Assembly: GCA_963669175.1 (NCBI GenBank) | Contig: OY769902.1 | Location: forward strand, 3,136,001-3,200,000 | Length of the DNA stretch: 64,000 nt | Reading direction: 5' to 3' | Source: a bacterium | Lineage (GTDB): Bacteria > Electryoneota > Electryoneia > Electryoneales > Electryoneaceae | Shown: positions 2,979 to 57,653 of the stretch, piece by piece | How the letters are laid out: every line of letters starts with the position of its first letter | Numbering within the stretch: the first letter of the stretch is position 1 | The notes under the pieces: generated by a model | Databases searched by the model: none | Told to the model about the DNA's origin: nothing | Seen by the model: the letters and a program-made list of their open reading frames with translations, nothing else | Made by a program: the position numbers and the translations under genes

Positions 2979-3335
2979 GTGCTAACCTCTTTGTTTTCTT
3001 TACCATGTATGATACTGCTAAAATGATCAACAGTGCAAATATCTGCATAGTGAGTTGTGAGAATCTTCGTAGGGTTCATATAAACAAAAATATACGAACA
3101 CACTTGTGTCATTTGTGACGCTATCCTCGGAGGGCAGAAAGACCTCAGGAGACTCTCTCTCTATTAATAGTACTTTTTTTTCCGAGAACGCCTCTACTTA
3201 CAGAGCATCTAACAGAGGCTTGTATTATTTTAACCAGCTAAATGAGAAGTCCACCGGATCGTACAGAAGTTTCAGTTCTTTTCATAAACGGCCTGGACAA
3301 CAGGTGAGCCCGCATTGATTTGGAGGGACAGAAAG

Positions 3336-6300
3336 ATGCGAAGATGTGCCGTGGTGTTGTTGATGTTGGCTTTGGTGGGACTAGCCACTGCTTCCGAAAC
3401 TGCTTCCTTAACCGACCAAACCATCCAACCTTTGCAAGTAGTCAACAGACAGATTACAGATTCCGGGATCAGTCTGACGCTTGAGGTTGGCGAACCGATG
3501 TGGATTTCCGTTGATGCCGAAAACGGCGATCAACTCGAGATGGCCTCATATCCCTTAAGTGGCTACATCTCAGAAGATGGTATGCCGGCTGTCCCGGTAG
3601 CTTCTTCACTTTTCAGGATTCCACCACGCAGTGGTGTATCTGTTGAGATTATCGAGGCAGAATACGAGACTTATTCAGATGTTGAATATGCCTCTATGTA
3701 TACCGAGGAACTTGACGACGGCATCAACGAGATTTACAGGCGAGCAAATGCCGAAGATCGCTGGTTCCCGGGCAACCTGGCTGAAGCAGGCGAGCCGGCA
3801 ATCTTCCACGATTTCCGTGTTACCAACCTGTTGACCTATCCTGTCCAGGTGAACCCTGCCAGACGTGAAGTACGCGTGTATTCAAATATCAGAGTCCAGA
3901 TCACCTACGAAGGTGTTGATGAACGTAACGCCCTTGAGGACTGGCCCACCCGGATCAGCCGTTCCATGGTCCCCAAGTACGAGGCATTCCTTGATTGGGA
4001 GCTGGATGAGCTGAACGACTACGAATTTTATGATGGCAATGTCCAAGTTGTCATGGTTGATGATGATGCTCTCTGGGCCGCGATGGAAGACTGGTTTACC
4101 TGGAAACGGGAAAAGGGCTGGAAGCTCGATTTTATTCACCCTGCCGATGTTGGCACCTGGTCCGCAGCAAACATTCGCGCAGAACTGATCGAACGCTACA
4201 ACAACAATCCTGACAAGTTTGATTACATCGTTATCATTGGTGACGACCAGGGTTCCTTTGCTGTTCCCCCCGGATCTGGCAGCAGTGGCTACGGCGCTGG
4301 TGACCAACCCTACAGTTGTATTGTTGGTGATGATAACCTGGCTGATATCGGTATTGGTCGTATTTCAATACAGACAGTGGCCCAGGCTGTTGCTTACCAG
4401 CAAAAAGTACTCACGTACGAACGCGATGTTGATTTTGACAATACCGACTGGTATTTGCGTGGAATGCTGAACCGGGCCGACACCCATGCCGGTATCAGCA
4501 AGGTCATCATGCTTCGTTATTACAAATATCTCATGTTACAACATCTCGGCTTCACCCAGGTTGATACGGTGATGTGGGGTAATGGCGATAACTTTGCCAT
4601 GCAGCGTATTGATGATGGCGTCAGTTTCTACGGCGGGCGCGGCTATTTGGGATATGGTCTAAGCACTGGCGAAATAGCTCAGCTCGAAAATGACAATATG
4701 ACCCCTGTTGTTATTGATGTGACCTGCGGAACGGGAAACTGGTCGCAAGGGACATCCATCAGCGAAGCCTACATGCTGGCAGGAACAGTGCAAGCTCCTC
4801 GTGGTGGTGTAGTTGCCATGTCCATGGCGACATCAGGAACCCGCCCGGACTTCAACAATGTTCTGTCCGGAGCATCCGGCTGGTCCATGCTGCAAATGCA
4901 ATGGCCGACACCGGGTGACATGATGCTTGCCGGTAAGATTAACGGCTGGGTGAACTACCACGGGCATAACGATGCTACGTTGAACAGCTTCCTTCAGTGG
5001 TACAACCTGATGGGTGACCCGCTTGTTTACATCTGGACAGATATTCCCCACGAACTGGATGTTGATGCTCCTGCAAGCATGGTTCTGGGGCAGCATGAGT
5101 ATTCAGTCATCGTGACCGAGGATGGCGAACCGGTTGTTGATGCCTGGGTTACCTTCCTGAAAGAATCCGGCGGTGACAATATTCAGGTTTCCAAGTACAC
5201 AGACGAGACCGGTTCAGTAACATTCTATCCTGAAGTTGGTGGCGCCGGTGAGGCAAAACTGACTGTAACAAAGTACAATTGTGCGCCAGTGCAGGTTGAT
5301 GTTGCTGTTAGCGCCTTTAATGCTACTGTTGGCTGGGATGGCATCACAATCATAGACAATGGTGTCGGCGGCACTATTGGCGATGGTGATGGTATTCCGG
5401 AAGCTGGGGAACGTGTTGGTCTGCAAATGCTGCTGAAGAACTATGGTGGCGCTGAAGCAACCGACATCAGCATCACCGGTGATTCGGACGATCCCTACAT
5501 CAACGATGTATACGGTTCTGTCAGTCTTGGCTCGCTGAGTCCCAACCAGTCTTCGCAAGGTAGCGGTATGGTTATCGTTGATATCGCAGACTTCGCGCAG
5601 GACAGATGGCTTGCCATTATTAACCTTGCCATCGAAACTGACGATGGTACAGTTGAGGATGCCTACCAGCTTACCCTCAATGCTCCCAACTTTGTGATTA
5701 CCCAGGTTACGCTTTCAGGAGATTTACAGCCCGGACAGTCACGTGAGGCTATCTTGACGGTTGGCAATATCGGTGGCAGCGATGCAACTGCCGGTACCGC
5801 CTTGTTTGTCAGCCGCGATCCATGGTTGCGTGTTACCCAGTATAATGGTACTGTCCCGGCTTTGGATATCAATAGCGCTGGTGTCAGTTCAAGTTTCCAG
5901 GTTGAAGCGCTTGTTGGAAGCTTCCCGGGCTATGAGGCGAAAGCCATGTTGCTGGTAACCACTGAAACCGGTCAGGTTGATACTGCATACACGACAGTAC
6001 TTTTCGGTACACGTGAAGAGAGCGATCCGATTGGCCCGGACAACTACGGTTACATGGGATTTGACAACATCGATACCGATTGGGACTATGCTCCTGTGTA
6101 CGATTGGGTAGAGATTAACCCGGATGCACCCAACAACGACTATTCAGGCATTGCGCTGGATATTTCGGACCTTGCGGAAAATGATGAAGATGAAGACATG
6201 GGTGTAACCCTGGATCTGGAAGAAATTGCATTCCCGATTCAGTATTACGGCGAGACCTTCACAGAGATTTCCGTTCATAGTAACGGTACCGTTGCTATGG

Positions 6301-8411
6301 GCGCCCAGGCCAGCATTTCATCCAACCGTAACTGGACTATCCCAAGCGCGGCAGGCCCCAGCGGAATGCTTGCTCCTTACTGGGATGAGCTACAGACCAA
6401 CGGTGACTGTGCTATCCTCTATCATTATGATGAGGATAATGATCGCCTCATTTTCGAATTCTACAAAATGCGGCATCATGTTACCAGTTACGAGAGCACT
6501 TTTGAAGTTATCATCTATGATACGGAAGCGTATCCCACCGCGACGGGCGATAACGAAATTGTTTTCCAGTACGGTGAGTGTGATCATTCCACTGGTGGTA
6601 TGACAAACGATGTTCCTTACTGGACAACCGGTATTGAGAGTAACGATCAGTCCGACGGTCTGCTGGTTGCCTATTGGAACGAGTATACCGATGGTTCTGC
6701 CAGCATCACCCAGGGACGCGCCATTAAGTTTACTACCAACATTGCTGTACCGGTTGGAAGGATTCATGGTGTGATTTCGGATCTGGAAACTGGCAATCCG
6801 ATTGAAAATGCCATTGTTCGTACAAGCGACTGGATGTTCACGGCTGTAACAGATGCTGAAGGTGAGTATGCGATTGACAGCGTATTCATCGGCAATTACG
6901 ATCTGGTTGTCGAAGCAGTCTGCTACAACGAAACGACGATAGAGAACATATCTGTCGCTGATGGCAGTGATGAAACTGCGAATGCGCAGATGACTCACCC
7001 GGAGTTTGAGCTGTCAACATTGATGCTTTCGACTGAAATTGCTCCGGATTCCGCAGTCTTCCTCGAGTTCGCGATCAACAACGATGGCAACGGCCCGCTA
7101 ACCTACAATGCCAGCCTGCATTTCCCGAATGAAGCATTGCTTAACGGCAATGGTGATTCAGGAAACAGGGGACCGGTACAGAGTGATAACGAGCTGGATG
7201 AAGCCTGGGATCAGATTTACCAGTTCGATTTAGATCAGATGGAGCTGCGTTATCGTGGTGTCGTTTTCGATGGTGAATATTTCTGGTTGAGCGGTTCCAA
7301 CAACTATGATGTCAGCGGTCCGAACAAGCTGTACCAGTACGATGCTGAAGGTATGTACCTGGCGACATTCGATCAGCCGGTACCGGCTGAGGATCGTACC
7401 AGCCAGGGCTTCTACGGCATGGCATGGGACGGTGAATACTTGTATGCGGCGGATGGCGGCATCATGTACCAGATGGAGTTCGATGAAACGGAATGGACTG
7501 TTCTCGACACATGGGAAGTCCCGGCCAACCCGGCACGTTATATCGTACTCGATCCGAACACGTACTACTTCTACATTGGCGATTATGGTACAGAGATCCG
7601 TGCGATACATCCGGACAGCTCAGATATAATCTACGAATTCGGTCAGGAATTCTATCCTCGCGGCGGTGGTTGGTTCCCGGAAGATGAGGATGGATACAAC
7701 ATTTACTTCATCGCACAGCAAAGCGGCGAAGCGATGATCAGTTTTGTCAAGATGGACCCGGTTACTGGCGATACACGTCCTATCTATTCGACACAGGTCG
7801 AAGAAGGCTATCTTGCTACTGGCGGCGACATTACCTACTTCTGGGATCCGTCCGTGTGGCAATTCATCAGCGTGCTGGAAAGCAGCGATCTGGACAAGGT
7901 GACTCTCTGGGAAGTTGATACCTACTCCAACTGGGTAGAAGTACTCAATCCGACTGGAACAGTTGAAGCTGAGGGAAGCAATACCGTGGAACTGCGTGTG
8001 CATTCCTATGGTTTGCCGCCGGATACTTTCAACGTGGCAATCGAGATCAGCCATGACGCCTGTACTGAAAACCAGGAATGGGTCGATCTGACCATGATCG
8101 TTTACGATCCCAAGGGAATCGAAGATCATGATGTCACTGACCTGCCGACCGAGTTCTCGTTTGATGGTGCGTACCCGAACCCGTTCAACCCGGTCGCAAC
8201 AGTTCGCTTCGGCCTGCCACAAACAGCGGTCGTGAAGGCTACAGTATTCAACCTGTTGGGCCAGAAGGTTGCCACATTGACGAATCAACCGATGCAGGCG
8301 GGATACCACCAGCTTACCTTTGATGGAAGTAACCTGGCCAGCGGCATGTACTTCCTGAACTTCCAATCCGGTCCGATCAACGAGACGACAAGGTTGATCC
8401 TGATGAAGTAG
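3336..8411 (+). CDS. Secreted C25 (gingipain-like) peptidase-family protein, paralogue 1: signal peptide, propeptide, catalytic domain, Ig-like repeats, CarboxypepD_reg-like domain, propeller-like region, T9SS-type C-terminal domain
   Basis: GGAGG RBS before ATG 3336; YIVIIGD, DIGIGRIS, DVTCGTG, YNLMGDP motifs; C-terminal YPNPFNP...LASGMYF...LILMK. Confidence 0.88.
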   Translation: MRRCAVVLLMLALVGLATASETASLTDQTIQPLQVVNRQITDSGISLTLEVGEPMWISVDAENGDQLEMASYPLSGYISEDGMPAVPVASSLFRIPPRSGVSVEIIEAEYETYSDVEYASMYTEELDDGINEIYRRANAEDRWFPGNLAEAGEPAIFHDFRVTNLLTYPVQVNPARREVRVYSNIRVQITYEGVDERNALEDWPTRISRSMVPKYEAFLDWELDELNDYEFYDGNVQVVMVDDDALWAAMEDWFTWKREKGWKLDFIHPADVGTWSAANIRAELIERYNNNPDKFDYIVIIGDDQGSFAVPPGSGSSGYGAGDQPYSCIVGDDNLADIGIGRISIQTVAQAVAYQQKVLTYERDVDFDNTDWYLRGMLNRADTHAGISKVIMLRYYKYLMLQHLGFTQVDTVMWGNGDNFAMQRIDDGVSFYGGRGYLGYGLSTGEIAQLENDNMTPVVIDVTCGTGNWSQGTSISEAYMLAGTVQAPRGGVVAMSMATSGTRPDFNNVLSGASGWSMLQMQWPTPGDMMLAGKINGWVNYHGHNDATLNSFLQWYNLMGDPLVYIWTDIPHELDVDAPASMVLGQHEYSVIVTEDGEPVVDAWVTFLKESGGDNIQVSKYTDETGSVTFYPEVGGAGEAKLTVTKYNCAPVQVDVAVSAFNATVGWDGITIIDNGVGGTIGDGDGIPEAGERVGLQMLLKNYGGAEATDISITGDSDDPYINDVYGSVSLGSLSPNQSSQGSGMVIVDIADFAQDRWLAIINLAIETDDGTVEDAYQLTLNAPNFVITQVTLSGDLQPGQSREAILTVGNIGGSDATAGTALFVSRDPWLRVTQYNGTVPALDINSAGVSSSFQVEALVGSFPGYEAKAMLLVTTETGQVDTAYTTVLFGTREESDPIGPDNYGYMGFDNIDTDWDYAPVYDWVEINPDAPNNDYSGIALDISDLAENDEDEDMGVTLDLEEIAFPIQYYGETFTEISVHSNGTVAMGAQASISSNRNWTIPSAAGPSGMLAPYWDELQTNGDCAILYHYDEDNDRLIFEFYKMRHHVTSYESTFEVIIYDTEAYPTATGDNEIVFQYGECDHSTGGMTNDVPYWTTGIESNDQSDGLLVAYWNEYTDGSASITQGRAIKFTTNIAVPVGRIHGVISDLETGNPIENAIVRTSDWMFTAVTDAEGEYAIDSVFIGNYDLVVEAVCYNETTIENISVADGSDETANAQMTHPEFELSTLMLSTEIAPDSAVFLEFAINNDGNGPLTYNASLHFPNEALLNGNGDSGNRGPVQSDNELDEAWDQIYQFDLDQMELRYRGVVFDGEYFWLSGSNNYDVSGPNKLYQYDAEGMYLATFDQPVPAEDRTSQGFYGMAWDGEYLYAADGGIMYQMEFDETEWTVLDTWEVPANPARYIVLDPNTYYFYIGDYGTEIRAIHPDSSDIIYEFGQEFYPRGGGWFPEDEDGYNIYFIAQQSGEAMISFVKMDPVTGDTRPIYSTQVEEGYLATGGDITYFWDPSVWQFISVLESSDLDKVTLWEVDTYSNWVEVLNPTGTVEAEGSNTVELRVHSYGLPPDTFNVAIEISHDACTENQEWVDLTMIVYDPKGIEDHDVTDLPTEFSFDGAYPNPFNPVATVRFGLPQTAVVKATVFNLLGQKVATLTNQPMQAGYHQLTFDGSNLASGMYFLNFQSGPINETTRLILMK

Positions 8412-9428: not shown

Positions 9429-10414
9429 ATGGATATGATTGAATCTTCAGTATGTGGCGGAAGCCCAAGGGTTGCATCGCAATGGATAGGTGGTTTTCAG
9501 GCCTATTTCTATGACAAGGTCATGGAAAAAGTGATATTCCCAAAAAAATTTGGTGGAGATCTGGAACAGCACTATACGATTTTAAACAGGTACACTTCGG
9601 CATTTCACGGATTAGATGTTTTGGAACTGGCTGCCGGCAGTGGCGATTGTGTTCGATTTCTTCCAACAGACAACACCTATACCGGTGTCGATATCAGCAT
9701 GGGCCTGTTAAAACAGGCAAAGCGAAAAATCAACAAGGCCGGGTATAGACATGCACGACTTCTTCACTGTGCAGCAGAAGATCTTCCTCTTCCTGGTAAT
9801 CAATACGACCTGGTCCTTTGTAACCTGGCGTTGAACTTCTTCACAGATTCCGATTCTGTGTTGAATGAGTGTTGTCGTGTATTAAAAACGGGTTCCTCAC
9901 AAGAATTTGTGCATTCGGGCGATGTTGTGGCAGGTCTTGACGCGACATTTCGTCTTCGACTTTTGCTGTGTTTTCCAGAATGCACAATGATACTGAAACC
10001 ACCTCGCGCCCTGTTATTGTCGCGTTGTGACCTGCCACCTGATACAACATTCTCGCTGTCGTCAGGTCACAACGTGATGCCTGATGACGATCCATCAAGC
10101 GAAATAGCATGTGTGAAGTCGGACAGGTGTCTGAAATTGCGGAGAAGAACGCGAAAACGGCATCACGTCAAGACCTGACGAAACGTACTCGTAGATAATA
10201 CGCACAAATTCCTGTGAGAAGCCTAAAAACGAAAGGCATGATCCTGGGGTCTGTTCCAGTACCCGAAAGAAAAAAGACAGATAGTAAAATCAGGGGAAGG
10301 CTGAAGACAGAAAAGGAATTGGAGTCTTTCTTTAAAGAGAAGGGGTTCAGTTTTCAATCACTGGAAGAACATAATGGCGCTGTTTTCTATTTCAAAGCTG
10401 AACTCGTGGACTAA
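9429..10414 (+). pseudogene. Class I SAM-dependent methyltransferase disrupted by a MITE
   Basis: VLELAAGSG, GVDISMGLL, YDLVLCNLAL motifs. Removing 9891-10231 restores ...ECCRVLKT-KGMILGSVPVPE... in one frame; the 341 bp insertion shifts the frame by 2. Confidence 0.88.
9891..10223. mobile_element. 333 bp non-autonomous element (MITE), 22 bp imperfect TIRs, 8 bp target duplication; IS256-like ends (tentative)
   Basis: Left GGTTCCTCACAAGAATTTGTGC; right end reverse complement GGCTTCTCACAGGAATTTGTGC; TAAAAACG at 9883-9890 and 10224-10231. Confidence 0.92.
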
Positions 10415-15338: not shown

Positions 15339-15462
15339 GAAAAAGGGGACAGTTTCCTTTCCCTGGGGCAAAGCCTTCCCAGCGTGAGCATGGACTGGGA
15401 AAGGTGGCTGTACCCTTTTTCTTGAGAGCAGGCAGGAATTACACGGAAAAGGGGACAGTTTC
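15339..15462. repeat. AAAAGGGGACAG inverted/direct repeat cluster
   Basis: 15339-15363 pairs imperfectly with 15397-15421; third copy at 15446-15462; similar GGGGACAGTTT motif near 46017. Confidence 0.6.
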
Positions 15463-15474
15463 ACGAAATCTTGG

Positions 15475-15660
15475 TAGTTCTATTCTAAGTGAAACTAACG
15501 CAGAAATCAGCCATCAAAAACAAGCCCGAAGGGAGCGCGCGCTTTACCCCATGACTGCGTTGATTTCCCTTGAAATAGCCTGCTATGTCTGTGGTCAAGC
15601 GCTTTGTCTTGGGGCAAAGCGCGCAGCTCAGAAAACATCATAGCAGGTGCAATGGATCAC
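15475..15660 (-). mobile_element. Degenerate partial copy of the MITE at 45.7 kb
   Basis: Reverse complement shares ordered motifs GAGCTGCG, GACAA(A/G)GCGC, CATAGC..TATTTCAA, AACGCAGTCATG and GCGCGCTCCCTTCGGGCTTGT with 45660-45929. Confidence 0.75.
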
Positions 15661-16013
15661 GAGTATTGCAGGGGCGTGATTAAACAGAACGGTTCATGTG
15701 GATTGAATGAAAGTAGAAATAATCCTGTATAGCCGGGAAGCGCAGCTAATCGTCTTGTGTTGAACGATGGATGATGCAGCGCTCGATGCCTGCCTGTCTT
15801 TGAGTACCGATTCCACAAGTTTCTGCCGATTTCGCAGTAGTCTCTCTTCTCGTGATTATTTCAGGATATTTTTTTCGTTTATCTGTCGCAGGCAGGCAAT
15901 TGTACAGGTGGTGATGCTATTTTACTTAGAATAATGGAAAACACCGTGAGCACATTGACTCTATACATAGAGGGTTGGAGAAAGCGTTTGCCAACAATGT
16001 TTGGAGGATTGCG

Positions 16014-19000
16014 ATGTACAGATTGCGAGTGTTGTTTTTGATTGCAGCAATTACGGGTATTGCTGCAGCATCCGAATCCCTTACCCCACAATCCGACCAG
16101 AGCATGTCTCCCTTTCAGGTTGTAGAACGGCAGGTTACTGAAGCGGGAATTACTGCGACATTTGCGGTCGAAGAACCAACCTGGGTGCCTGTCGAGGGTA
16201 TCGATGGCAGTCAGCTTGAACTTGCCGTATTCCCATTAAGTGGCGCACTTACGGAGAACGGAATGCCATCCGTTCCCGTTGCGGCAACCCTTTTCAGGCT
16301 TCCACCTCGAAGCGGCGCTATAGTAGAAGTTCTGGAAGCCGAATATGTTACGTATTCAGATGTTGAATACGCTTCCCTGTACGCAAACGAACTGAACGAA
16401 GGCAGCAATGAAATAGAGTACGCATGTGCAGATAGAGAGTTGGATAGCTGGTATCCGGGAACACTTGCGGAGATTGGCGAACCGGCAATCCTCCATGATT
16501 TCCGTGTAACCAACCTGATGACTTACCCGGTTCAGGTTAATCCTGCACGGAATGAAGTGCGGGTTTATACCACGTTGCGAGTTCAGGTTCGCTATGAAGG
16601 TATTGACGAGCGTAATGCACTGGAGAATTGGCCCACACGGTTGAGTCGTTCCATGGTGCCAAAGTATGAAGCGTTCCTGGATTGGGAACTGGACGAATTG
16701 AACGACTACGAATTCTATGATGGCAATGCTATTGTCATTATGCGTGATGATGATGCCTTGTGGAGCGCGATGGAGGATTGGTTTGAGTGGAAGCTTCAAA
16801 AGGGATGGAAGCTTGATTTTATCCATGAAAGCGATGTCGGCTCATGGTCGGCCGCAAGTATTCGTAGCGAACTAATCGAACGATATGAGAACGCCCGGGA
16901 CAAGTTTGATTATGTCGTTGTAATTGGTGACGATACCGGGTCGTTCGATGTGCCTGCCGGTTCCGGTGGGAGCGGTGGCGGTAATGGTGATCATCTCTAT
17001 AGCTGTCTTGTAGGGAATGATAACCTGGGTGATGTTGGAATTGGCCGGATTTCTGTACAAACTGTTACCCAGGCAGTGGCATACACCAACAAAGTGCTTA
17101 TATACGAACGGGATGTAGATTTCGATAATACAGACTGGTATCTCCGTGCCATGTTAAATCGAGCCAATTCAGGCGCTGGGATCAGTAAGATAATCATGCA
17201 TCGGTATTATAAATGTCTCTTGTTGCAGCAGCTTGGTTTTACGCAGGTTGATACAATCAACTGGGGTGGTCAGGATCCTTTAGCGATGCAGAAAATTGAC
17301 GATGGAGTCAGTTTTTATTCTGAGCGAGGGTACCTGGGGCAGGGGTTAAGTATTGCTGAAGTGAACCAGTTGAACAATGACAACATGACACCTGTCGTCA
17401 TTGATGTCACCTGCGGTACCGGGAACTGGTCCGATAATACAGGAATCAATGAAGCGTTCATGCTGGCCGGTACTGTAAACGCACCGCGTGGCGGTGTGGT
17501 CGCCATGTCCATGGCAACTTCAGGCACACATCCGAACTTCAACAATGTACTATCCGGAGCGTCCGGTTGGTCCATGTTGCAGATGCAATGGCCAACGCCC
17601 GGGGACATGATGCTGGCGGCAAAGATTAATGGCTGGGTAAACTATGAAGGTCGTAGCAATGAACTGGATAACTTCCTGATGTGGTATAACCTGATGGGCG
17701 ACCCACTGGTGTACATCTGGACTGATATGCCGCATGAGTTTGAGGTGGACGCGCCTGCCACGATAGCCCTTGGCCAGCGTGAATATGTGGTAACTGTCGA
17801 AGAAGGCGGAGTTCCGGTAGAGGATGCCTGGGTTACTTTCTACAAGGATTCTGGTGTTGACGATATTCAGATTTCCAGGTACACTGATGAGAACGGCGTT
17901 GCCACATTCTATCCTGATGTGAATGCTTCCGGTAATGCCATGCTTACGGTGACCAAGCTGAATTTCGCCCCAACGCAGATTGAGGTTAATGTGAACGGTG
18001 TTGGCGCTTCTGTCAGCTACCAGAGCATTAACTATATCGATACTGGCATGGGGGGGACAATCGGTGATGGCGATGGTATTCCTGAAGCCGGTGAGCGTGT
18101 TGGTTTGCAACTTACCCTGAAAAACTACGGTGGAGCTGAAGAAACGGACATCAATATCACTGCAGAAATAGATGATCCCTATATCAATGATGTCTATGGC
18201 GCGGTTACCCTGGGATCATTGGGCGCAAATCAATCATCCCTGGGAAGTGGGGTTATTCTTGTTGATATCGCTCCTTTTGCACAGGACAGGTGGCTGGTTC
18301 CGGTAACCCTGGTTGTTGAAACCGAATCCGGGACAACGACGGATGGATTCGAACTATCTATTGCCGCACCGAACTATGTTGTTACCAGTGTGGCAACAAA
18401 TGGAAACCTGAATCCGGGGGCAAACAGGGAGGTAACTTTAACCCTGGGTAATGCCGGTGGAAGTGACGCAACACTTGGCAATGCCATGTTGATCAGCCGC
18501 GATCCCTGGTTACGGTTTATCGAGTATTCCGGCACCATCCCGGCAATAGAAGTAAACGGAACGGCAACCTCATCCGTTTTCAGAGCCGAAGCGCTTGTAG
18601 GCAGTTTCCCGGGGTATGAGGCGAAAGCCATGTTGATCGTAACCACTGAAACGGGCCAGGTTGATACGGCGTATACCTCAGTGGTGTTCGGAACTCGCAG
18701 TGAAAGCGATCCGATTGGTCCGGACAGATATGGTTACATGGCATTTGATAACATTGATACTGATTGGGACTATGCGCCCACATACAACTGGATTGAAATC
18801 AATCCGGATGTGAACGGGTATGATTATGAGGGAACGGAAATAGAGATCGAAGATCTGGCAGAAAACGATGACGAAGGCGATACTTTGAACCTGGAGGTTC
18901 ATGGTTTCCCGATCACGTATTATGGTGAAACATTCAACTACATCTCGATCACAACCAACGGTTTTCTGGCTATGGGGTTGCAACCCAGCATCTGCAACAA

Positions 19001-21086
19001 CCGGAACTGGTCCATTCCAACTCCTGCCGGTCCTTCCTACATGATTGCGCCTTACTGGGATGAACTTCAGACCAATGGCGATTGCGCGATACTGTACTAT
19101 CATGATGAAGAGAATGGCCGTCTGATTTTCGAGTTTTACAAGATGCGGCACCACAGTACTGTCTATGAAAGCACTTTTGAAGTCATTTTCTACGATACGG
19201 AAATGTATCCGACAGCGACTGGCGATAACGAGTTTGTGTTCCAGTACGGTGAATGCGATCACTCGAGTGGAGGTATGTCTTATGATGTGCCCTATTGGAC
19301 AACAGGTATCGAGAATGGCGATCAGAGTGATGGCTTGCTGATGGCTTACTGGAATGAATATGCGCCCGGCGCTGCTGAAATCGAGCAGGGAAGAGCGATC
19401 AAGTTTACCACCAACATTGACGTCCCGATTGGAAGCATTCACGGTGCAATCTCCTGCCTGGCAACGGGCAATCCGATTGAAAATGCCTTAGTTGCTACCA
19501 GTGACGGCATGTTCCAGGCAATCACCGATGCTGAAGGTGAATACATCATCGACAGCGTTTTCATTGGTGAATATAACCTGGTTGTTTCGGCGGATTGTTT
19601 CAATGATGGGGCTGTTGCGGGGATTGTTGTCAATGATGGAAGCGATGTAACAGCAAATGCGCAGCTTCGCCATCCGGAGTTTGAATTGTCAACTCTCGAC
19701 CTGGCAACAGAGTTGCCACCGGATTCTGAGACGACACTCCAGTTTGAATTGACTAATAATGGGAATGGGCCTTTATACTATGAAACTGATTTGAGCTTCC
19801 CTAATGAAGCTCTGTTTAATGGTGGAGGGGGATCAGGGAATCGTGGACCAGTGCATAGCGGCTCAGAGCTGGATGAAGCCTGGGACCAGGTGTTCGAGTT
19901 TGGACTGGATCCGATGGAGCTTCGCTACCGTGGTGTAATCTTCGATGGCGAATACTTCTGGATGACCGGATCAAATTCGTATGACGTCAGCGGCCCAAAC
20001 AAATTGTATCAGTACGATGCAGCGGGCACATACATCGCCACCTTTGATCAGCCGGTACCGGCCGAGAATCGTACCAGCCAGGGGTTCTTTGGTATGGTTT
20101 GGGATGGGGAATACCTGTACGCAGCGGACAATGGAATCATGTACCAGATGGAGTTTGTCGGCGATGAATGGACCGCTGTCGATACCTGGGATATCCCCGC
20201 CAATCCTGCACGGTATATTGTTCTCGATCCCGATAACTACATTTTCTATGTAGGTGACTTCGGTACTGAAATACGTGCAGTGCATCCTGATAGCCAGGGA
20301 GTCATCTACGAGTTTGGTCAAGATTTCTATCCACGTGGTGGCGGCTGGTATCCTGAGGATGAAGATGGATTTTACATCTACTTCATAGCACAGGAAAACG
20401 GCACTTCAATAGTAAACTTTATCAAGATGGACCCGGTTACCGGTGAAACACGTCCTGTCTTCAACACAGAAGTCGATGCTGGTTACCTGGCAACGGGTGG
20501 TGATGTGACTTATTTCTGGGATCCGTCCATCTGGCAATTCATCAGTGTGCTTGAGAGTTCTGATAGTGACATGGTCAGGCTGTGGGAAATCGATACCTAT
20601 GCCAATTGGGTTGAGGTCTTGAACCCGACAGGCGTGGTAGAAGCAGGGGAGAGTAGAGTTATTGAGGTCCATGTGCATTCGTACGGACTGCCGCCGGATA
20701 CATTCAGCGTAGCCGTTGATCTCTACCACAACGCCTGTACTGAGAACCAGGAGTGGGTCGATGTTGTCCTGGTGGTTACTGATCAGGGCGCGATTGACGA
20801 TCCTGATGTTGCGAATCTGCCCACGGAATTCACCTTTGACGGCGCCTATCCGAACCCGTTTAACCCGATCGCGTCTGTACGTTTTGGCTTGCCGGAGACT
20901 GCGATGGTAAAGGCGAACGTGTTCAACCTGCTGGGACAGAAGGTTGCGACGCTGGCGAATCAACCCATGCAGGCAGGATATCATCAGCTCACCTTCGACG
21001 GTAGCAACTTGGCGAGCGGGATGTACTTCCTGAACTTCCAGGCCGGACCGCTTCAGAAAACGACGAAGCTGATCCTCATGAAATAG
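16014..21086 (+). CDS. Secreted C25 (gingipain-like) peptidase-family protein, paralogue 2, same architecture as 3336..8411
   Basis: GGAGG RBS before ATG 16014; colinear with paralogue 1 with many identical peptide blocks; YPNPFNP C-terminal domain. Confidence 0.88.
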   Translation: MYRLRVLFLIAAITGIAAASESLTPQSDQSMSPFQVVERQVTEAGITATFAVEEPTWVPVEGIDGSQLELAVFPLSGALTENGMPSVPVAATLFRLPPRSGAIVEVLEAEYVTYSDVEYASLYANELNEGSNEIEYACADRELDSWYPGTLAEIGEPAILHDFRVTNLMTYPVQVNPARNEVRVYTTLRVQVRYEGIDERNALENWPTRLSRSMVPKYEAFLDWELDELNDYEFYDGNAIVIMRDDDALWSAMEDWFEWKLQKGWKLDFIHESDVGSWSAASIRSELIERYENARDKFDYVVVIGDDTGSFDVPAGSGGSGGGNGDHLYSCLVGNDNLGDVGIGRISVQTVTQAVAYTNKVLIYERDVDFDNTDWYLRAMLNRANSGAGISKIIMHRYYKCLLLQQLGFTQVDTINWGGQDPLAMQKIDDGVSFYSERGYLGQGLSIAEVNQLNNDNMTPVVIDVTCGTGNWSDNTGINEAFMLAGTVNAPRGGVVAMSMATSGTHPNFNNVLSGASGWSMLQMQWPTPGDMMLAAKINGWVNYEGRSNELDNFLMWYNLMGDPLVYIWTDMPHEFEVDAPATIALGQREYVVTVEEGGVPVEDAWVTFYKDSGVDDIQISRYTDENGVATFYPDVNASGNAMLTVTKLNFAPTQIEVNVNGVGASVSYQSINYIDTGMGGTIGDGDGIPEAGERVGLQLTLKNYGGAEETDINITAEIDDPYINDVYGAVTLGSLGANQSSLGSGVILVDIAPFAQDRWLVPVTLVVETESGTTTDGFELSIAAPNYVVTSVATNGNLNPGANREVTLTLGNAGGSDATLGNAMLISRDPWLRFIEYSGTIPAIEVNGTATSSVFRAEALVGSFPGYEAKAMLIVTTETGQVDTAYTSVVFGTRSESDPIGPDRYGYMAFDNIDTDWDYAPTYNWIEINPDVNGYDYEGTEIEIEDLAENDDEGDTLNLEVHGFPITYYGETFNYISITTNGFLAMGLQPSICNNRNWSIPTPAGPSYMIAPYWDELQTNGDCAILYYHDEENGRLIFEFYKMRHHSTVYESTFEVIFYDTEMYPTATGDNEFVFQYGECDHSSGGMSYDVPYWTTGIENGDQSDGLLMAYWNEYAPGAAEIEQGRAIKFTTNIDVPIGSIHGAISCLATGNPIENALVATSDGMFQAITDAEGEYIIDSVFIGEYNLVVSADCFNDGAVAGIVVNDGSDVTANAQLRHPEFELSTLDLATELPPDSETTLQFELTNNGNGPLYYETDLSFPNEALFNGGGGSGNRGPVHSGSELDEAWDQVFEFGLDPMELRYRGVIFDGEYFWMTGSNSYDVSGPNKLYQYDAAGTYIATFDQPVPAENRTSQGFFGMVWDGEYLYAADNGIMYQMEFVGDEWTAVDTWDIPANPARYIVLDPDNYIFYVGDFGTEIRAVHPDSQGVIYEFGQDFYPRGGGWYPEDEDGFYIYFIAQENGTSIVNFIKMDPVTGETRPVFNTEVDAGYLATGGDVTYFWDPSIWQFISVLESSDSDMVRLWEIDTYANWVEVLNPTGVVEAGESRVIEVHVHSYGLPPDTFSVAVDLYHNACTENQEWVDVVLVVTDQGAIDDPDVANLPTEFTFDGAYPNPFNPIASVRFGLPETAMVKANVFNLLGQKVATLANQPMQAGYHQLTFDGSNLASGMYFLNFQAGPLQKTTKLILMK

Positions 21087-21102
21087 GGAGGATGTCACAC
21101 TC

Positions 21103-21130
21103 GAGGACCGATCCATGTGAATCGGTCCAC
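21103..21130. repeat. 28 bp hairpin, minimal derivative of the GTGGAC-ended MITE family
   Basis: GAGGACCGATCCATGTGAATCGGTCCAC; last 22 bp match the right TIR of the 45.9 kb element at 19/22. Confidence 0.6.
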
Positions 21131-21183
21131 GAGCGTGACGATTCGCGTGGATTGATCCACAGGAAAGCCCAACGAAAACAACC

Positions 21184-21215
21184 AACCGGCGATGTCATTT
21201 GATATCGCCGGTTTT
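21184..21215 (+). terminator. Intrinsic terminator after C25 paralogue 2
   Basis: AACCGGCGATGTC-ATTT-GATATCGCCGGTT hairpin plus T residues. Confidence 0.65.
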
Positions 21216-21236
21216 CCATGCCTGGGCTGGGATCTG

Positions 21237-21300
21237 CTGAATCCGTCGGCGAACTCGCGTGGCCCGACTTATGCGCCGAGGCGTACTGCTTGCTGGCGGG
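21237..21300 (+). repeat. GTGG-type REP copy with flanking sequence and an 18 bp inserted hairpin
   Basis: CTGAATCCGTCGGCGAACTCGCGTGGCCCGAC[18 bp]TGCTTGCTGGCGGG aligns with 23027-23072. Confidence 0.75.
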
Positions 21301-21391
21301 TTCCTGGTCAGATGTCATTCCGCGATACAGTGATATAATGAGGGATCAAATGAATATCTCGCATTACTACTGAAGGATTATATCTCTAAGT

Positions 21392-21460
21392 AAAATAGAC
21401 CACCGCCGGGCAGCCGCCTACGCTTCGCTTCGGCGTGCTTCAAGCCGGCGGGGCCAAATA
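21392..21460. repeat. Dispersed palindromic repeat, copy 1 (inverted copy at 25595-25660)
   Basis: AAAATA..CCGCCGG.CAGCC..GTGCTTCAAGCCGGCGGGGCCAA shared with the reverse complement of 25595-25660. Confidence 0.8.
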
Positions 21461-21462
21461 AG

Positions 21463-21654
21463 TCAACTGGCTATTGCATCTTCAGCATACTGAAATACAG
21501 GGCAAAGCTGTGTGCATAATCCGCAATTCATACAATTGTCCTGGTTTATAGTCGGTACTCCGAAACCAACCTGAATGATTGCATTGGTTGGACAGGCATT
21601 TATCACCGGACATGGGTGATTATGTGGGCACATGTGTTTCAGGACGTGAATCAT
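21463..21654 (-). CDS. Small 4Fe-4S dicluster (ferredoxin-like) protein, 63 aa
   Basis: GGAGG RBS; CPHNHPCPVINACP and CMNCGLCTQLCP motifs. Confidence 0.85.
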   Translation of the reverse strand: MIHVLKHMCPHNHPCPVINACPTNAIIQVGFGVPTINQDNCMNCGLCTQLCPVFQYAEDAIAS

Positions 21655-21884
21655 GGTATGGTATCCTCCCGTGAGTTTAACCGTTTTCAAGCGTTGGATG
21701 CGAGAACAGGCGGTTCGATGCTTTTGGGAGGAACGGGGAGGCAAAGTAAGGATGAACAAGAGTTTGGCTAATGAAACTTCTTTCGAGTTTAACCGGTCAT
21801 TTTTATCTGCCAGGTTTTGGTATGTTAGTGGTCTGTCCGTTTTAGCCTGCTTCAGCAGGCTCTTCTTAGCACCCGGCTTTAGCC

Positions 21885-22280
21885 CTGTCTCTTACCCACA
21901 TCTTCTGAAAGCTGTATCAGTAAAAGAGTTGTGGACATAGCATTTTTAGAATCCCGGCGGGATTCCCTATTTTAGCATAGTGTACAGGCCGTCTGTTTGG
22001 CCTGTACACTATGTCAGGTATTCTAACGAATAATCAACCCTGGAAGGGTTGCATAATACGCGATTCATATTAGTACGTTCAATAAATACAGGAAATAACG
22101 CATTTTATATTCTATACAAACCAATTGGGTGTAAATTATACGTTATGCAACCCTTCCAGGGTTGAGATAAGGTTTGATCTTTTTCGTAGGGTAGACGCTA
22201 AACAGACAGCGTCAACCCTACGCTAAAATATACCACCCCCTCTGGGGTGGCAGAAACACGAAGATGTGAGCAAGAGACAG
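21885..22280. mobile_element. 396 bp MITE with IS50/Tn5-like 19 bp ends and a 10 bp target duplication
   Basis: Left CTGTCTCTTACCCACATCT; right reverse complement CTGTCTCTTGCTCACATCT; GGCTTTAGCC at 21875-21884 and 22281-22290. Confidence 0.88.
21950..22250. repeat. Inner REP doublet carried inside the MITE
   Basis: 15 bp stem hairpins at 21976-22013 and 22185-22222; TCAACCCTGGAAGGGTTGCATAA inverted pair at about 22034-22056 and 22143-22165. Confidence 0.8.
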
Positions 22281-22545
22281 GGCTTTAGCCGGGGTGAATA
22301 GAACGTGTAATAATCAGGAGCGCGCTTTAGCGTGCTTTCCAGTACGTAAACTCTGCGTTGGTAAGCACCCTGAAGGGCGCTCAGTATTTTGTGGTATCTT
22401 CACACCTGGCTAAAGCCAGGTGCTAAGAGGGAGCAGGCTAAAGCCTGCTAAAATAATAGAAATAAAGTAAAGATGACAAATGATTTCACAAGCCTACAGC
22501 ATCAGTGAAATCGTCTCGCCATTGGGAGTTAGGAATAAAGTATAG

Positions 22546-22594
22546 ATGATAAATGATAAATGATAAATGATAAATGATAAATGATAAATGATAA
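22546..22594. repeat. Heptamer tandem repeat (ATGATAA) x7
   Basis: Seven perfect copies between two 43 bp direct repeats (22487-22529 and 22595-22637). Confidence 0.95.
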
Positions 22595-22601
22595 CACAAG
22601 G

Positions 22602-23489
22602 CTACAACATCAGTGAAATCGTCTCGCCATTGGGAGTGAGGGGGAGTTCGGGCATTTCCATGTATGGTTTCCCATCCAGCAACCGTCCCGCTTTTTTCTT
22701 GTTCAGCCCGCCCCATTGTTTGAAGAAGAAGGGGACGTTCTGTTCATGGCACTGATCACGGATGCTTCGAACCCAATCCGGTTGAATGACACGCGCCTGC
22801 GGGCCGGACTCGCCGCCCACGATCACCCAGTGGATATCCGTCAGGTTAAGGTTGTCGATAGGGCCGAGCAACGGTTCGATGGACAGGAAACGAATGGCAG
22901 CCGGTGTGCGTCGTAGATGCTCAATCCGCCAGGTATAATCACGGTTCTCCACACTGACACCCAACCAGATATGAGGTGGTACAGTATCTGGATCTGTTTG
23001 GCCCGACTGCTTGCTGTCGGGAACGCCTGAATCCCTCGAAGAACTCGTGTGGCCCGACTGCTTGCTGTCGGGAATTGCGGAATCTCGTAGCCCGTCCATG
23101 CCTGGACGGGGATCGGACAATACATCTTGATAAATCTGCGGAACCAATTCTTCCAACCGTTCCGCGCGCTTTGTCAGCACCTGGTAAACGTGACGATTGC
23201 ACTGTATCATTACCTCGAACACCCGCTTCACATACTCGTATGGGATGTCCTCGTGAAACAGGTCGTTCATGGAATTGACGAAAATGACCTGTGGTTTACG
23301 AAGGTGGAACGGCTCGCGCAGCACATCCTCATGGCAACGCACCGCAAACCCATCGGCGTACTTCTCCTGTCCCATGGCCTGTAAGCGTTTCGCCATCCGT
23401 TCAGCGTAACAATGTTTGCAGCCCGGGCTGATTTTGGTACACCCTGTAGTCGGGTTCCAGGTAGAAAATGTCCATTCGATTTTCGACAA
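22602..23489 (-). CDS. DUF5131 (phage Gp37/Gp68-like) protein with an in-frame REP-derived insertion
   Basis: SKIEWT..TWNPTTGCTKISPGCKHCYA, FVNSMNDLFH, LTKR, WLGVSVE, FLSIEPLLG, WVIVGGESG, FFFKQWGG; TTG start inferred from the family N-terminus. Confidence 0.92.
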   Translation of the reverse strand: MSKIEWTFSTWNPTTGCTKISPGCKHCYAERMAKRLQAMGQEKYADGFAVRCHEDVLREPFHLRKPQVIFVNSMNDLFHEDIPYEYVKRVFEVMIQCNRHVYQVLTKRAERLEELVPQIYQDVLSDPRPGMDGLRDSAIPDSKQSGHTSSSRDSGVPDSKQSGQTDPDTVPPHIWLGVSVENRDYTWRIEHLRRTPAAIRFLSIEPLLGPIDNLNLTDIHWVIVGGESGPQARVIQPDWVRSIRDQCHEQNVPFFFKQWGGLNKKKAGRLLDGKPYMEMPELPLTPNGETISLML

Positions 23490-25372: not shown

Positions 25373-25432
25373 TATGTCATTCCCATTCTTATGTCATCCC
25401 ATTCTTATGTCATCCCATTCCTATGTCATCCC
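25373..25432. repeat. 16 bp tandem repeat (TATGTCATCCCATTCT), about 3.7 copies, running into a hairpin
   Basis: Directly visible; the last copy continues into the 25428-25464 hairpin. Confidence 0.85.
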
Positions 25433-25594: not shown

Positions 25595-25660
25595 TATTGG
25601 CCCCGCCGGCTTGAAGCACACCGTAGCTTGCGAAGGTGGCTGTCCGGCGGGGTTTATTTT
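25595..25660. repeat. Dispersed palindromic repeat, copy 2 (inverted relative to 21392-21460)
   Basis: TATTGGCCCCGCCGGCTTGAAGCAC...CCGGCGGGGTTTATTTT. Confidence 0.8.
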
Positions 25661-25700
25661 AACGAGAGCGTCAGTCCTTCAGTAGTTTTTGTATGAGAAA

Positions 25701-25892
25701 CCCGACAGCAAGCAGTCGGGCCACGCAGTATATGGAAGAATCCCGACGCACTTATAGAGACTCGCCTGTTTTTCAGTACGGGAAAGCGTAGCCATTTTCG
25801 TTTTTAATCGTACAAATGGTTGCTGCGCATCGGGCCATACGATCTGTGGTAGTTGTATGAGAGAGAAACCCGACAGCATGCAGTCGGGCCAC
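25701..25892 (-). repeat. Two GTGG-type REP copies in direct repeat
   Basis: CCCGACAGCA(A/T)GCAGTCGGGCCAC at 25701-25724 and 25869-25892, each preceded by GTATGAGA. Confidence 0.85.
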
Positions 25893-26071
25893 GCGACAGA
25901 TGGATATCGCTTGCCGTTTGTATGGACTTATTAGTCCTTGATTGTTGCACCATAGGGGAGCTCACGGTTGACAGGGGAACTCTTTCGAGCTAACGTGCAG
26001 GTCACAGTACGTTGCTTTCTTCTGATGCGAGTAGCGAGACAAAGCAGGAAACGAGATCCCTTGAAGGGGAT

Positions 26072-45659: not shown

Positions 45660-45929
45660 CTAGTGGACCGGATCACATGAATCGATGGATACAGAGCTGC
45701 GAATCATCGTTCAGGACAAGGCGCATTCCTGAAGTCATAGCGGGTTATTTCAAAGGAATGGAACGCAGTCATGAACGATGAGGCGCGCTCCCTTCGGGCT
45801 TGTCACGAGGCGGCTGTCTGCTGCGTTGATTTCATTTACAGTAACCCGCTACACCTGCATGAATTCGCCTTGCAGCCAACTCGCCCGTGACAAGCAGAAC
45901 TCCTCGATTCATGTGATCCGGTCCACTAG
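45660..45929. mobile_element. About 265 bp MITE with a perfect 26 bp terminal inverted repeat including CTAG; TA duplication, IS630/Correia-like
   Basis: CTAGTGGACCGGATCACATGAATCGA (45660-45685) is the exact reverse complement of 45904-45929. Confidence 0.9.
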
Positions 45930-55458: not shown

Positions 55459-57236
55459 GTCGGCGGGGCTCAATTCACGAAGAAGAGAACCTGGGGAAGA
55501 TTTACGATCACCGGCTGGTGACAAGGTTGATGGCCTATATCAAACCCTACTGGTTCCGTGTGCTTGTTGCCGTCATCCTGCTGATCGGTATTGCTGCGCT
55601 TGAACAGTTGACACCTTATCTGACCAAGGTTGCGATAGACAATCATATTGTCAAGGGTGATTTCAAGGGGCTGATTGGTATTGTCGGCCTGATTGCCCTA
55701 CTATCCCTGGTTGTTGCTATGGGGAAGATTGTCCAGGCTATTCTGACCAGCTATGTCGGAGAACGTGTCATGTTTGATCTCCGCCGGGAAATCTTCCATC
55801 ACCTGCAATCCCTGTCACTTCGCTTCTTTGACCGGAATCCGGTGGGAAGACTGGTAACCCGAAACACCTCAGATGTTGCCACCTTGAGTGAGATTTTTTC
55901 CAGCGGTGTGGTTGTAATATTCGGCGATCTGATCACGCTGGTGTTTATCGTGGCTGCCATGCTGATGATCAATGTCCAGTTGGCGCTGGTATCGTTTACC
56001 GTGGTGCCGTTGCTGGTGCTGGTTACTTTCCTTTCAAGAATGAAGCTGCGCGATGCGTTTCGTGGTGTCCGCGTAAAAGTTGCAGCCATGACCGCCTTCA
56101 TGCAGGAACATTACAGCGGAATGCGTATCATTCAACTGTTTAACCATCAGAAAAAAGTGGATGACAGATTTGCAGAGGTCAATAACGACACAAAATTCGC
56201 CCACCTTCGAACTGTTGCCCTCTTTTCTATTTTCTTTCCACTTATAGAAGTGATTGGGGCGCTTTCAACAGTGCTCATCCTGCTGCGCGGCGGTTTCCTG
56301 GTTCTGGATGATGCGATCACGATTGGTGTGCTGGTTGCGTTTTTCCAGTATGCAGAACGGTTTTTCCGGCCGATTCGTGAGCTGTCGGAGAAATACAACA
56401 TTTTTCAGGCAGGTCTTGCATCAGCGGAACGAGTTTTCAATTTGCTGGATACCGAACCGGATATGATGGAACCCGTGAATCCTCATGCTTCCAGTACAGT
56501 CAAGGGGGAAATTGAGTTCAAGAATGTGCTGTTTGAGTATAACAAAGGTGAAGAGATTCTGCATGACATTTCTTTCCATGTCAAACCGGGGGAGACGATT
56601 GCGATTGTCGGTTCTACCGGTGCGGGAAAAACGACTGTTGCCAACCTGATCGGCAGATTCTACGATACCACAGGCGGGAATGTATTTATTGATGGGGTGG
56701 ATGTTCGGAAATGGGATCGGGATGCCTTGATGCACAGTATCTGTTATGTTCATCAGGATGTGTTCATGTTTAACGGGACTGTCCGGGATAACATAACCCT
56801 GGGTGACGAGTATTCGGATGATCAGGTGATCGAAGCAGCGAAAACTGTAAACGCGGACCGTTTCATTCAACAATTACCGCAGGGATATCATGAGCAGGGA
56901 ACAGAACGTGGCGCCACTTTTTCCACAGGACAGCGTCAACTCCTGTCGTTTGCCCGTGCTCTGATCAGGAATCCCCGAATTCTGATCCTTGATGAAGCGA
57001 CCAGTTCCGTAGACTCAGAGACGGAATTCCTGATCCAGCAGGCGATGGAGCGTCTTCAAAAAGGGCGTACCTCTATTGTCATCGCACACCGATTATCCAC
57101 CATCATGAATGCAGATCGTATCCTCGTATTCCACAAGGGACGCCTTTGCGAAGCGGGATCGCATACCAATCTTCTGGAGCGCAGAGGGATTTACCACAGG
57201 TTGTTCCAACTACAGTACAGCCACACGGCGGCATAA
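55455..57236 (+). CDS. ABC exporter permease/ATPase (MdlB-like half)
   Basis: GSTGAGKT, FSTGQ, ILDEATSSVD, IAHRLST. Confidence 0.93.
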   Translation: MSRRGSIHEEENLGKIYDHRLVTRLMAYIKPYWFRVLVAVILLIGIAALEQLTPYLTKVAIDNHIVKGDFKGLIGIVGLIALLSLVVAMGKIVQAILTSYVGERVMFDLRREIFHHLQSLSLRFFDRNPVGRLVTRNTSDVATLSEIFSSGVVVIFGDLITLVFIVAAMLMINVQLALVSFTVVPLLVLVTFLSRMKLRDAFRGVRVKVAAMTAFMQEHYSGMRIIQLFNHQKKVDDRFAEVNNDTKFAHLRTVALFSIFFPLIEVIGALSTVLILLRGGFLVLDDAITIGVLVAFFQYAERFFRPIRELSEKYNIFQAGLASAERVFNLLDTEPDMMEPVNPHASSTVKGEIEFKNVLFEYNKGEEILHDISFHVKPGETIAIVGSTGAGKTTVANLIGRFYDTTGGNVFIDGVDVRKWDRDALMHSICYVHQDVFMFNGTVRDNITLGDEYSDDQVIEAAKTVNADRFIQQLPQGYHEQGTERGATFSTGQRQLLSFARALIRNPRILILDEATSSVDSETEFLIQQAMERLQKGRTSIVIAHRLSTIMNADRILVFHKGRLCEAGSHTNLLERRGIYHRLFQLQYSHTAA

Positions 57237-57243
57237 AAAAAAC

Positions 57244-57528
57244 GGTTCCTTACAAGAATTTGTGCAGAAATGTTGTGGCAGGTCTTGGCGCGATTGGCTT
57301 TCTTGTCACTTTGTCAACTTTTTTTTTAGAAATTGCGATTTGGTTGTATGCGCTTTTTTTACACTTTTCACTGGTCGCGTTGTGACCTGCTACATAATCG
57401 GGAGAAGTGTTCAACGTCAGGTCACAACGTGATGCCATCAGAATTCCTCCCAAAAGTTTGATAAAGGTCATTGAAAAGTTTGGTGTCAGGACAAAATCCA
57501 AAATCACGCATCACGTCAAGACCTGACG
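57244..57528. mobile_element. Second, diverged copy of the four-box MITE, lacking the right TIR
   Basis: GGTTCCTTACAAGAATTTGTGC left TIR (21/22 to copy 1) and the same four internal boxes. Confidence 0.85.
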
Positions 57529-57653
57529 CAACATATTGAGTATAGCCACACGGCGGCTTGATCTATAACCCCCACAGAGAAATCGTTTCCCACGAGTGGC
57601 GAGGCGAAAAGTGAGATCGTACCTTAAAGTTTGTCTTTTTCGGGAGGCGGTGC

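Follow-up and report, generated by a model that had tools for sequence, protein, structure and literature searches.

Within the window, the 64,000-nucleotide stretch of DNA analysed here, a SAM-dependent methyltransferase gene is interrupted by a short non-coding element, referred to as copy 1 (9891–10223, 333 bp). The 5′ part of the gene (9429–9890, plus strand) is recognized as Methyltransf_25 (Pfam, E=1e-17), and the 3′ part (10232–10414, plus strand) comprises 60 codons and a stop that align with homologue C-termini directly after the residues RVLKT. An 8-bp target-site duplication, TAAAAACG, precedes the element (9883–9890, plus strand) and is repeated after it (10224–10231, plus strand) with identity at 8/8 positions. 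Copy 1 itself begins and ends with 22-bp terminal inverted repeats (left, 9891–9912, plus strand; right, 10202–10223, minus strand), which agree with each other at 19/22 positions. Besides the gene itself, 14 methyltransferase homologues were found, and all 10 that were aligned run uninterrupted across the insertion site, passing from RVLK to the sequence that follows the right duplication. The inverted ends, the perfect duplication and the continuity of the homologues across the site identify copy 1 as a genuine insertion, one that is recent and breaks a gene.

The insertion has terminal inverted repeats, a target duplication, an empty-site equivalent and a short length, all of which characterize MITEs, and it carries no mobility gene: its read-through frame matched no protein family, only other copies of the element and one protein (P0018) that was discarded as a chance match to Ig-like repeats. 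The terminal repeat occurs three times in the window (9891, plus; 10202, minus; 57244, plus), the last occurrence belonging to a second copy, whose left repeat matches that of copy 1 at 21/22 positions. The shell of copy 1 is a MITE of the non-coding sort: its inverted ends are IS256-like, and its insertion duplicated 8 bp of the target. An ISL3 origin of the ends is a possible alternative; elements of that family have GG ends similar to those of copy 1 and an 8-bp AT-rich target.

IS256-related elements are described as having 18–39-bp repeats ending in C and 8–9-bp duplications (PMC3942029), and in these features, which other families share, the ends of copy 1 fit the p-MULT 1 (IS256) group. 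Among the matching rows listed from Table S1 of that source, the ends partly resemble those of ISRm3, ISApr14 and ISNha9, all IS256-family elements with 8-bp duplications; none of these listed rows gives an exact match. The left repeat is similar to the ends of ISRm3 (IS256 family, 8-bp repeat), at 11/22 positions without gaps and at about 17 with one gap, as counted by eye. Like IS256/p-MULT 1 MITEs, then, copy 1 is short and non-coding, with 22-bp imperfect inverted ends finishing in C, an 8-bp duplication and an ISRm3-like inner end part. It differs from them in its interior, where two conserved hairpin units take the place of transposase remnants.

Each hairpin unit is built from two of four related boxes. 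Hairpin 1 runs from box A (9927–9945, plus strand), which has a TTG core, begins GTGG and forms the 5′ arm, through a 74-nt loop (9946–10019, plus strand) to box B (10020–10038, minus strand), the 3′ arm, with an ACA core. After a 21-bp linker (10039–10059), hairpin 2 comprises box C (10060–10080, plus strand; ACA core, beginning CGTC), a 79-nt loop (10081–10159) and box D (10160–10180, minus strand; TTG core), which begins CGTC on the minus strand and forms the 5′ arm. A YGTT motif stands just 5′ of the A:B stem (9923–9926, plus strand) and 5′ of the D:C stem (10182–10185, minus strand).

The second copy has the same arrangement, with hairpin 1 at 57275–57393 (plus strand; box A 57275–57293, an 81-nt loop, box B 57375–57393) and hairpin 2 at 57415–57528 (minus strand; box C 57415–57435, a 72-nt loop, box D 57508–57528). 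These eight box positions, the spacers of 74/21/79 and 81/21/72 and the shared A-to-D span of 254 bp were all given correctly by the earlier sequence-only reading, as was the contrast between conserved boxes and diverged spacers. Between the copies, boxes A and B are identical at 18/19 positions each and boxes C and D at 21/21 each; the single change in box B turns GTGG into GTAG, read on the minus strand. The three spacer pairs, including the hairpin 1 loops, align no better than shuffled sequence (fractions 0.51, 0.92 and 0.20 of 1000 shuffles). In the window, the 12-mer box pattern whose tabulation that reading had proposed gave 10 matches with at most one mismatch, where 1.7 were expected, and none of 100 shuffles reached 10.

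The two copies differ in their surroundings. That the boxes are carried inside IS256-like ends holds for copy 1, which has both ends and the 8-bp duplication; copy 2 has the left end alone (57244–57265, plus strand), with neither a right terminal repeat nor a target duplication at its locus. Copy 2 lies instead between two versions of the 3′ end of an ABC-transporter gene, the last codons being duplicated 325 bp apart over 57214–57561. The left version (57214–57236, plus strand) contains a 19-bp direct repeat, runs through the stop and matches 57539–57557 at 18/19 positions; the second, att-like version occupies 57539–57561 (plus strand), and both encode YSHTAA-stop. The three differences over the last seven codons are all synonymous or stop-to-stop. 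We infer that these flanks would be the att pair of an integrative element stripped of nearly all its content. The deletion may have used an AGTA(T/C) overlap between the element flank and the repeat.

A scan for hairpins anchored on TTG and TGT found four in the window and none in any of 10 shuffles, and DNA folding gave z-scores of −5.9 for copy 1 and −3.2 for copy 2. The lowest-energy fold of copy 2 is the nested A:D/B:C arrangement, not A:B plus C:D. The relevant pairings are A:B and C:D, two hairpins of which the second mirrors the first on the other strand. Together with a distant relative described below, designated L001, the two copies provide six hairpins. Counted from anchored coordinates over these six, which come from two genomes and are not independent, 97 of 108 stem cells are Watson–Crick, 8 are wobble pairs and 3 are mismatched. 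At variable stem positions, arms pair with their own partners in 58 of 66 cells against a mean of 34, a value reached by 1 of 720 permutations, or, given the four distinct stem types, by 1 of 24, which is the limit of the test. RNAalifold reported double changes at 8 of 21 pairs. The two arms of a pair keep their complementarity even though the stem sequence differs from pair to pair and from genome to genome. Local gene conversion could also produce such within-pair matching and so mimic covariation.

Other features are held constant while the loop varies from 3 to 81 nt. The mismatch of TTG opposite TGT is kept in all six hairpins, and the unpaired foot is YGTT in 6/6, found on the TTG-type arms (6/6) and at that place on none of the ACA-type arms (0/6). 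Arm tags follow a second pattern: GT[AG]G starts four of the six A/B arms (4/4 in the window, 0/2 in L001) and CGTC starts all six C/D arms, and these GTGG/GTAG and CGTC tags lie paired in long stems. A covariance model built from five hairpins found the sixth, the L001 C:D hairpin with its 3-nt loop, which had been left out of the building, at E=2e-4; it found no further copies in the 91 kb searched.

The relative L001 (CAIYYT010000253.1) was the one locus to emerge when 185,579 genomes were scanned for boxes A and B separated by 70–100 nt, with 21 exact bases demanded; the window's own genome is not among the matches, and the scan is no measure of copy number. About four matches to the pattern were expected by chance and one was obtained. 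L001 nevertheless qualifies as a true relative by features outside the scan pattern, namely five more stem pairs, box C at 11/12 positions and box D with its flank at 15/17 (joint p ~3e-9). Its stems are altered in sequence with pairing kept, as is the TTG/TGT mismatch. It lies after a stop codon, between convergent genes. Its core distances are 85/47/22, against 89/43/100 and 96/43/93 in the window, the linker being 4 nt longer, and its span is about 176 bp. The A-to-D core distance of 154 rather than 232 runs against the earlier proposal that a fixed span is under selection, and the long spacers share no helical phase (8.1, 8.5, 8.9, 9.1 and 9.5 turns). The 254-bp span is not general across the family, as judged from L001, one distant and perhaps partly deleted copy; among the closer kin of the window's own copies, length may still be constrained. 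Similarity of the spacers of copy 1 and L001 is not significant (p 0.06 global, 0.11 local).

No left terminal repeat was found in L001, the best of 30 offsets reaching 10/22. A weak match to the right repeat of copy 1 is present there, 11/22 at the same offset (p ~0.01); it may represent a worn right repeat and, if so, would make a free-living core less plausible. This 11/22 match, at the same distance from box D, falls on the final codons of a gene for a DUF2268 peptidase (L001 5889–5910).

Further copies emerged at the protein level. A search with the copy 1 read-through frame against 1.84 billion representatives gave four matches: the frame's own protein, P0016, P0017 and the chance match. 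A separate protein search aimed at shorter copies yielded nothing. P0016 consists of 66 residues of an IS110 transposase fused to 86 residues that are 97% identical to copy 1, the hairpin 1 loop being nearly identical at the protein level. Its left terminal repeat is missing; judged against an IS110 relative that is intact, the junction lies close to where the inner edge of that repeat would be. P0017 is 78% identical over 32 residues that cover the left repeat, box A and a portion of the loop. The element is thus multicopy: two copies lie in the 64-kb window, P0016 is probably a third in the same genome, and P0017 is a further one. Members of one subfamily thus share their spacers by descent, and different subfamilies have diverged in them. 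As a separate matter, an IS110 transposase on the plasmid NC_020305.1 (L003, 6001–6887) is absent from the plasmid's gene table and spans the origin of the record.

Searches of mobile DNA were negative. When plasmids and phages were searched by BLASTN with copies 1 and 2, the ends, box D and the L001 module, there were no matches or short ones at E ~0.7 or worse, none beyond chance, and one match that was inspected contained no IS. No autonomous partner with the ends of copy 1 was matched among plasmids or phages, and the frame of copy 1 had no tblastn match among plasmids. Rfam assigned no family at gathering score in the window, where weak generic hairpin matches appeared by E-value. Genes of the Y1, IS256, integrase and resolvase kinds are absent from the window's 46 ORFs and from its 92 intergenic frames, and the adjacent RAYT, tyrosine recombinase or IS256 transposase for which the sequence-only reading had proposed a search is likewise lacking there. 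The same four kinds of gene were sought in vain in the 11 L001 frames scanned (9 kb). Neither the window nor the 9 kb of L001 contains a RAYT flanked by the repeat; such genes act in trans.

Among known systems, the closest counterparts are REP heterodimers, REPINs and BIMEs of the GTAG/GTGG and CGTC superfamilies. Cleavage of Escherichia coli REPs is reported to depend on a 5′ tetranucleotide and on a mismatch left unpaired in the stem, the loop sequence being free (PMC8266576). REP dimers are described as often heterodimeric and 20–100 bp apart (PMC3733652), REPINs as showing compensatory changes and 71- or 110-bp spacing (PMC3116915), 'double foot' REPs as starting GT[AG]G and ending C[TC]AC (PMC6006769), and CGTC REPs as having no known transposase (PMC3733652). 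The element has the corresponding form of imperfect palindromes with a conserved mismatch, set in inverted doublets with covarying arms. It resembles these systems in its inverted pairs of unlike units, in having spacers of about 70–80 nt and a 5′ tetranucleotide, in the compensatory changes and conserved mismatch of its stems and in its position after stop codons (copy 2 and L001), and both A:B pairs in the window carry the double-foot ends, unlike the A:B pair of L001. It departs from them in its unpaired YGTT foot, in the mirroring of two pair types within one unit and in the enclosing DDE-type ends; its 72–81-nt loops are also far longer than those of single REPs. By analogy, the element would work like a REP cluster, and it is filed short of a proven member because the tags are paired here and the A:B pair of L001 lacks them.

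Two other classes share fewer traits. IS91 elements are reported to target the tetranucleotide CTTG and to have unlike ends and no target duplication (PMC13181058). All six TTG arms contain CTTG, and the subterminal imperfect palindromes recall the IS91 ends (oriIS/terIS), but in the element CTTG lies inside the stem; membership was rejected on the 8-bp duplication, the symmetric layout and the lack of a Y2 transposase gene in the window. TIRtrons/TIRYT repeats are described as inverted repeats that are associated with Y1 transposases and frequently form dimers or clusters (PMC3733652). Unlike these, the boxes have no GGGGWSAS motif, nor did a TIRYT gene turn up.

We give somewhat less than an even chance to the best single reading: an IS256-type MITE carries single-strand hairpins clustered as in REPs and BIMEs, and these are probably recognized by an HUH nuclease acting in trans, an enzyme deduced rather than found. 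On the evidence of the ends and the duplication, the shell was most likely moved in trans by an IS256-type DDE transposase encoded elsewhere. The interior would be a set of single-strand recognition hairpins organised as two heterodimers, in the manner of a REP/BIME cluster. On the correct strand, the HUH nuclease (Y1, RAYT-like) would bind the stem that contains the mismatch and cut or rejoin near the foot of that stem, and the mirror layout would offer one such hairpin on either strand. More speculatively, such cuts may account for the absence, in two copies, of one terminal repeat close to the outer boxes. Of the readings that the sequence-only analysis had offered, namely recombinase or HUH-nuclease sites or a structured RNA, the best is that of a structured single strand on which a nuclease or recombinase acts.

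A neighbouring possibility, which we consider unlikely, is that the hairpins represent an undescribed class of single-strand site, defined by the YGTT foot, a conserved lower stem, the invariant TTG/TGT mismatch, a free upper stem and a loop of 3–81 nt, and set as a mirrored doublet. The DDE transposase would act on the ends, and the site's own nuclease or recombinase would release the core from them or delete neighbouring DNA.

Site-specific recombination offers another account, to which we assign a similarly low probability: the boxes would be either folded single-strand sites of the attC type or double-strand integrase arm or resolution sites derived from an integrative element. As described for integron attC sites (PMC5027507), the element would present a folded single strand with two stems around an unpaired centre, a terminal loop of at least 3 nt and strand asymmetry. 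Recombinase genes are reported in some IS256-related elements (PMC3942029), and the position of copy 2 between synonymously differing gene 3′ ends recalls island att sites. However, the RYYYAAC/GTTRRRY pair occurs in none of the three elements, a lone RYYYAAC lying in the copy 2 linker; there are no extrahelical bases; and the mismatch is symmetric at 3 by 3 and does not vary, in contrast to the variable central spacer of 5–6 nt in attC (PMC5027507). The sequence is moreover conserved and set as an inverted doublet, not a cassette array, and attC membership was rejected on these grounds. The double-strand version draws on ACA boxes that twice match sites bound by lambda Int at 9/11 positions, but 70 of 200 shuffles did as well, and the likeness was set aside as no better than chance. 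Helical phasing and a recombinase gene, the latter sought in window ORFs and intergenic frames, are both missing.

It is improbable that the boxes are subterminal double-strand binding repeats of an IS256-like parent, the MITE being its central deletion and the matching within pairs a product of template switching or gene conversion. Such a history would suit the linkage of the left terminal repeat to box A in copy 1, copy 2 and P0017, which have diverged differently, the equal total span of the two window copies and the possible worn right repeat of L001. Conversion should, however, erase the 3-nt core difference, which is kept in 6/6 pairs, and the YGTT foot is on one arm only. The scan of 185,579 genomes gave no parent, and L001 has no left repeat.

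Improbable, too, is a role for the hairpins in RNA, as 3′-end stabilizers or as sites for a ribonuclease or RNA-binding protein, for which the mirror layout would work in either orientation. Copy 2 and L001 do follow stop codons, L001 between convergent genes; G–U wobbles are common on the TTG strand; and the stems also form when folded as RNA, although for copy 2 the nested A:D/B:C arrangement is favoured. Against this, the window holds no Rfam family at gathering score, neither copy has a promoter-like site, the one terminator-like match falls inside copy 2 box D, and the spread of the element and the loss of terminal repeats would go unexplained. Chance repeats or misassembly, neutral or artefactual, are very unlikely and largely refuted: the genome-scan pattern alone would be expected to give about four chance matches and gave one, but L001 has features outside that pattern (joint p ~3e-9) and five further stem pairs, and copy 1 has a perfect target duplication in a cleanly split gene.

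An IS256-like shell enclosing a mirrored, covarying hairpin doublet appears to be an undescribed combination, each part being of a known kind; among the open-access papers listed, none was found to describe the element, and none of those matching its box motifs concerns a bacterial repeat, judged by title. If the REP/BIME-like reading is right, REP-like hairpin clusters would spread by riding in DDE-type MITEs, and the range of REP-like substrates would grow, in uncultured lineages, to include very long loops and a new foot motif. The strand-specific mismatch and covarying stems provide a defined oligonucleotide substrate for an enzyme search, and a loop-tolerant hairpin site would be of interest for single-strand editing or recombination tools. 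Were the boxes simply subterminal IS repeats, the element would be one more MITE.

The window contains other repeats. A 92-bp repeat (21366–21457 and 25597–25686; 80% alike, inverted, with internal palindromes) is likely another small mobile or REP-like family. A 127-bp repeat occurs at 15486–15611 and 45712–45838 (72% alike, inverted), its second copy sitting within a pair of 26-bp perfect inverted repeats (45660–45685 and 45904–45929). Intergenic GGGGACAG motifs at 15345, 15451 and 46017 fit the GGGGWSAS consensus of the repeats associated with TIRYT Y1 transposases. The region 21080–22620 is a nested inverted-repeat mosaic (34 bp at 21872/22260, 23 bp at 22034/22143) with short palindromes, and a 14-bp tandem array lies at 22535–22590. 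Five copies of a palindromic repeat of about 40 bp are distributed over 21229–21269, 22996–23084 and 25695–25904, two of them inside a DUF5131 reading frame. Two C25-peptidase paralogues with a secretion C-terminal sorting domain (3315–8411 and 15975–21086) are 71% alike in DNA and suggest that the host belongs to the FCB group. A small ferredoxin-like frame on the minus strand (21466–21891; Fer4, E=2e-6) lies outside the list of ORFs of at least 100 aa, and a 16-bp tandem repeat is present three times at 25381–25432, 3′ of an aldehyde dehydrogenase gene.
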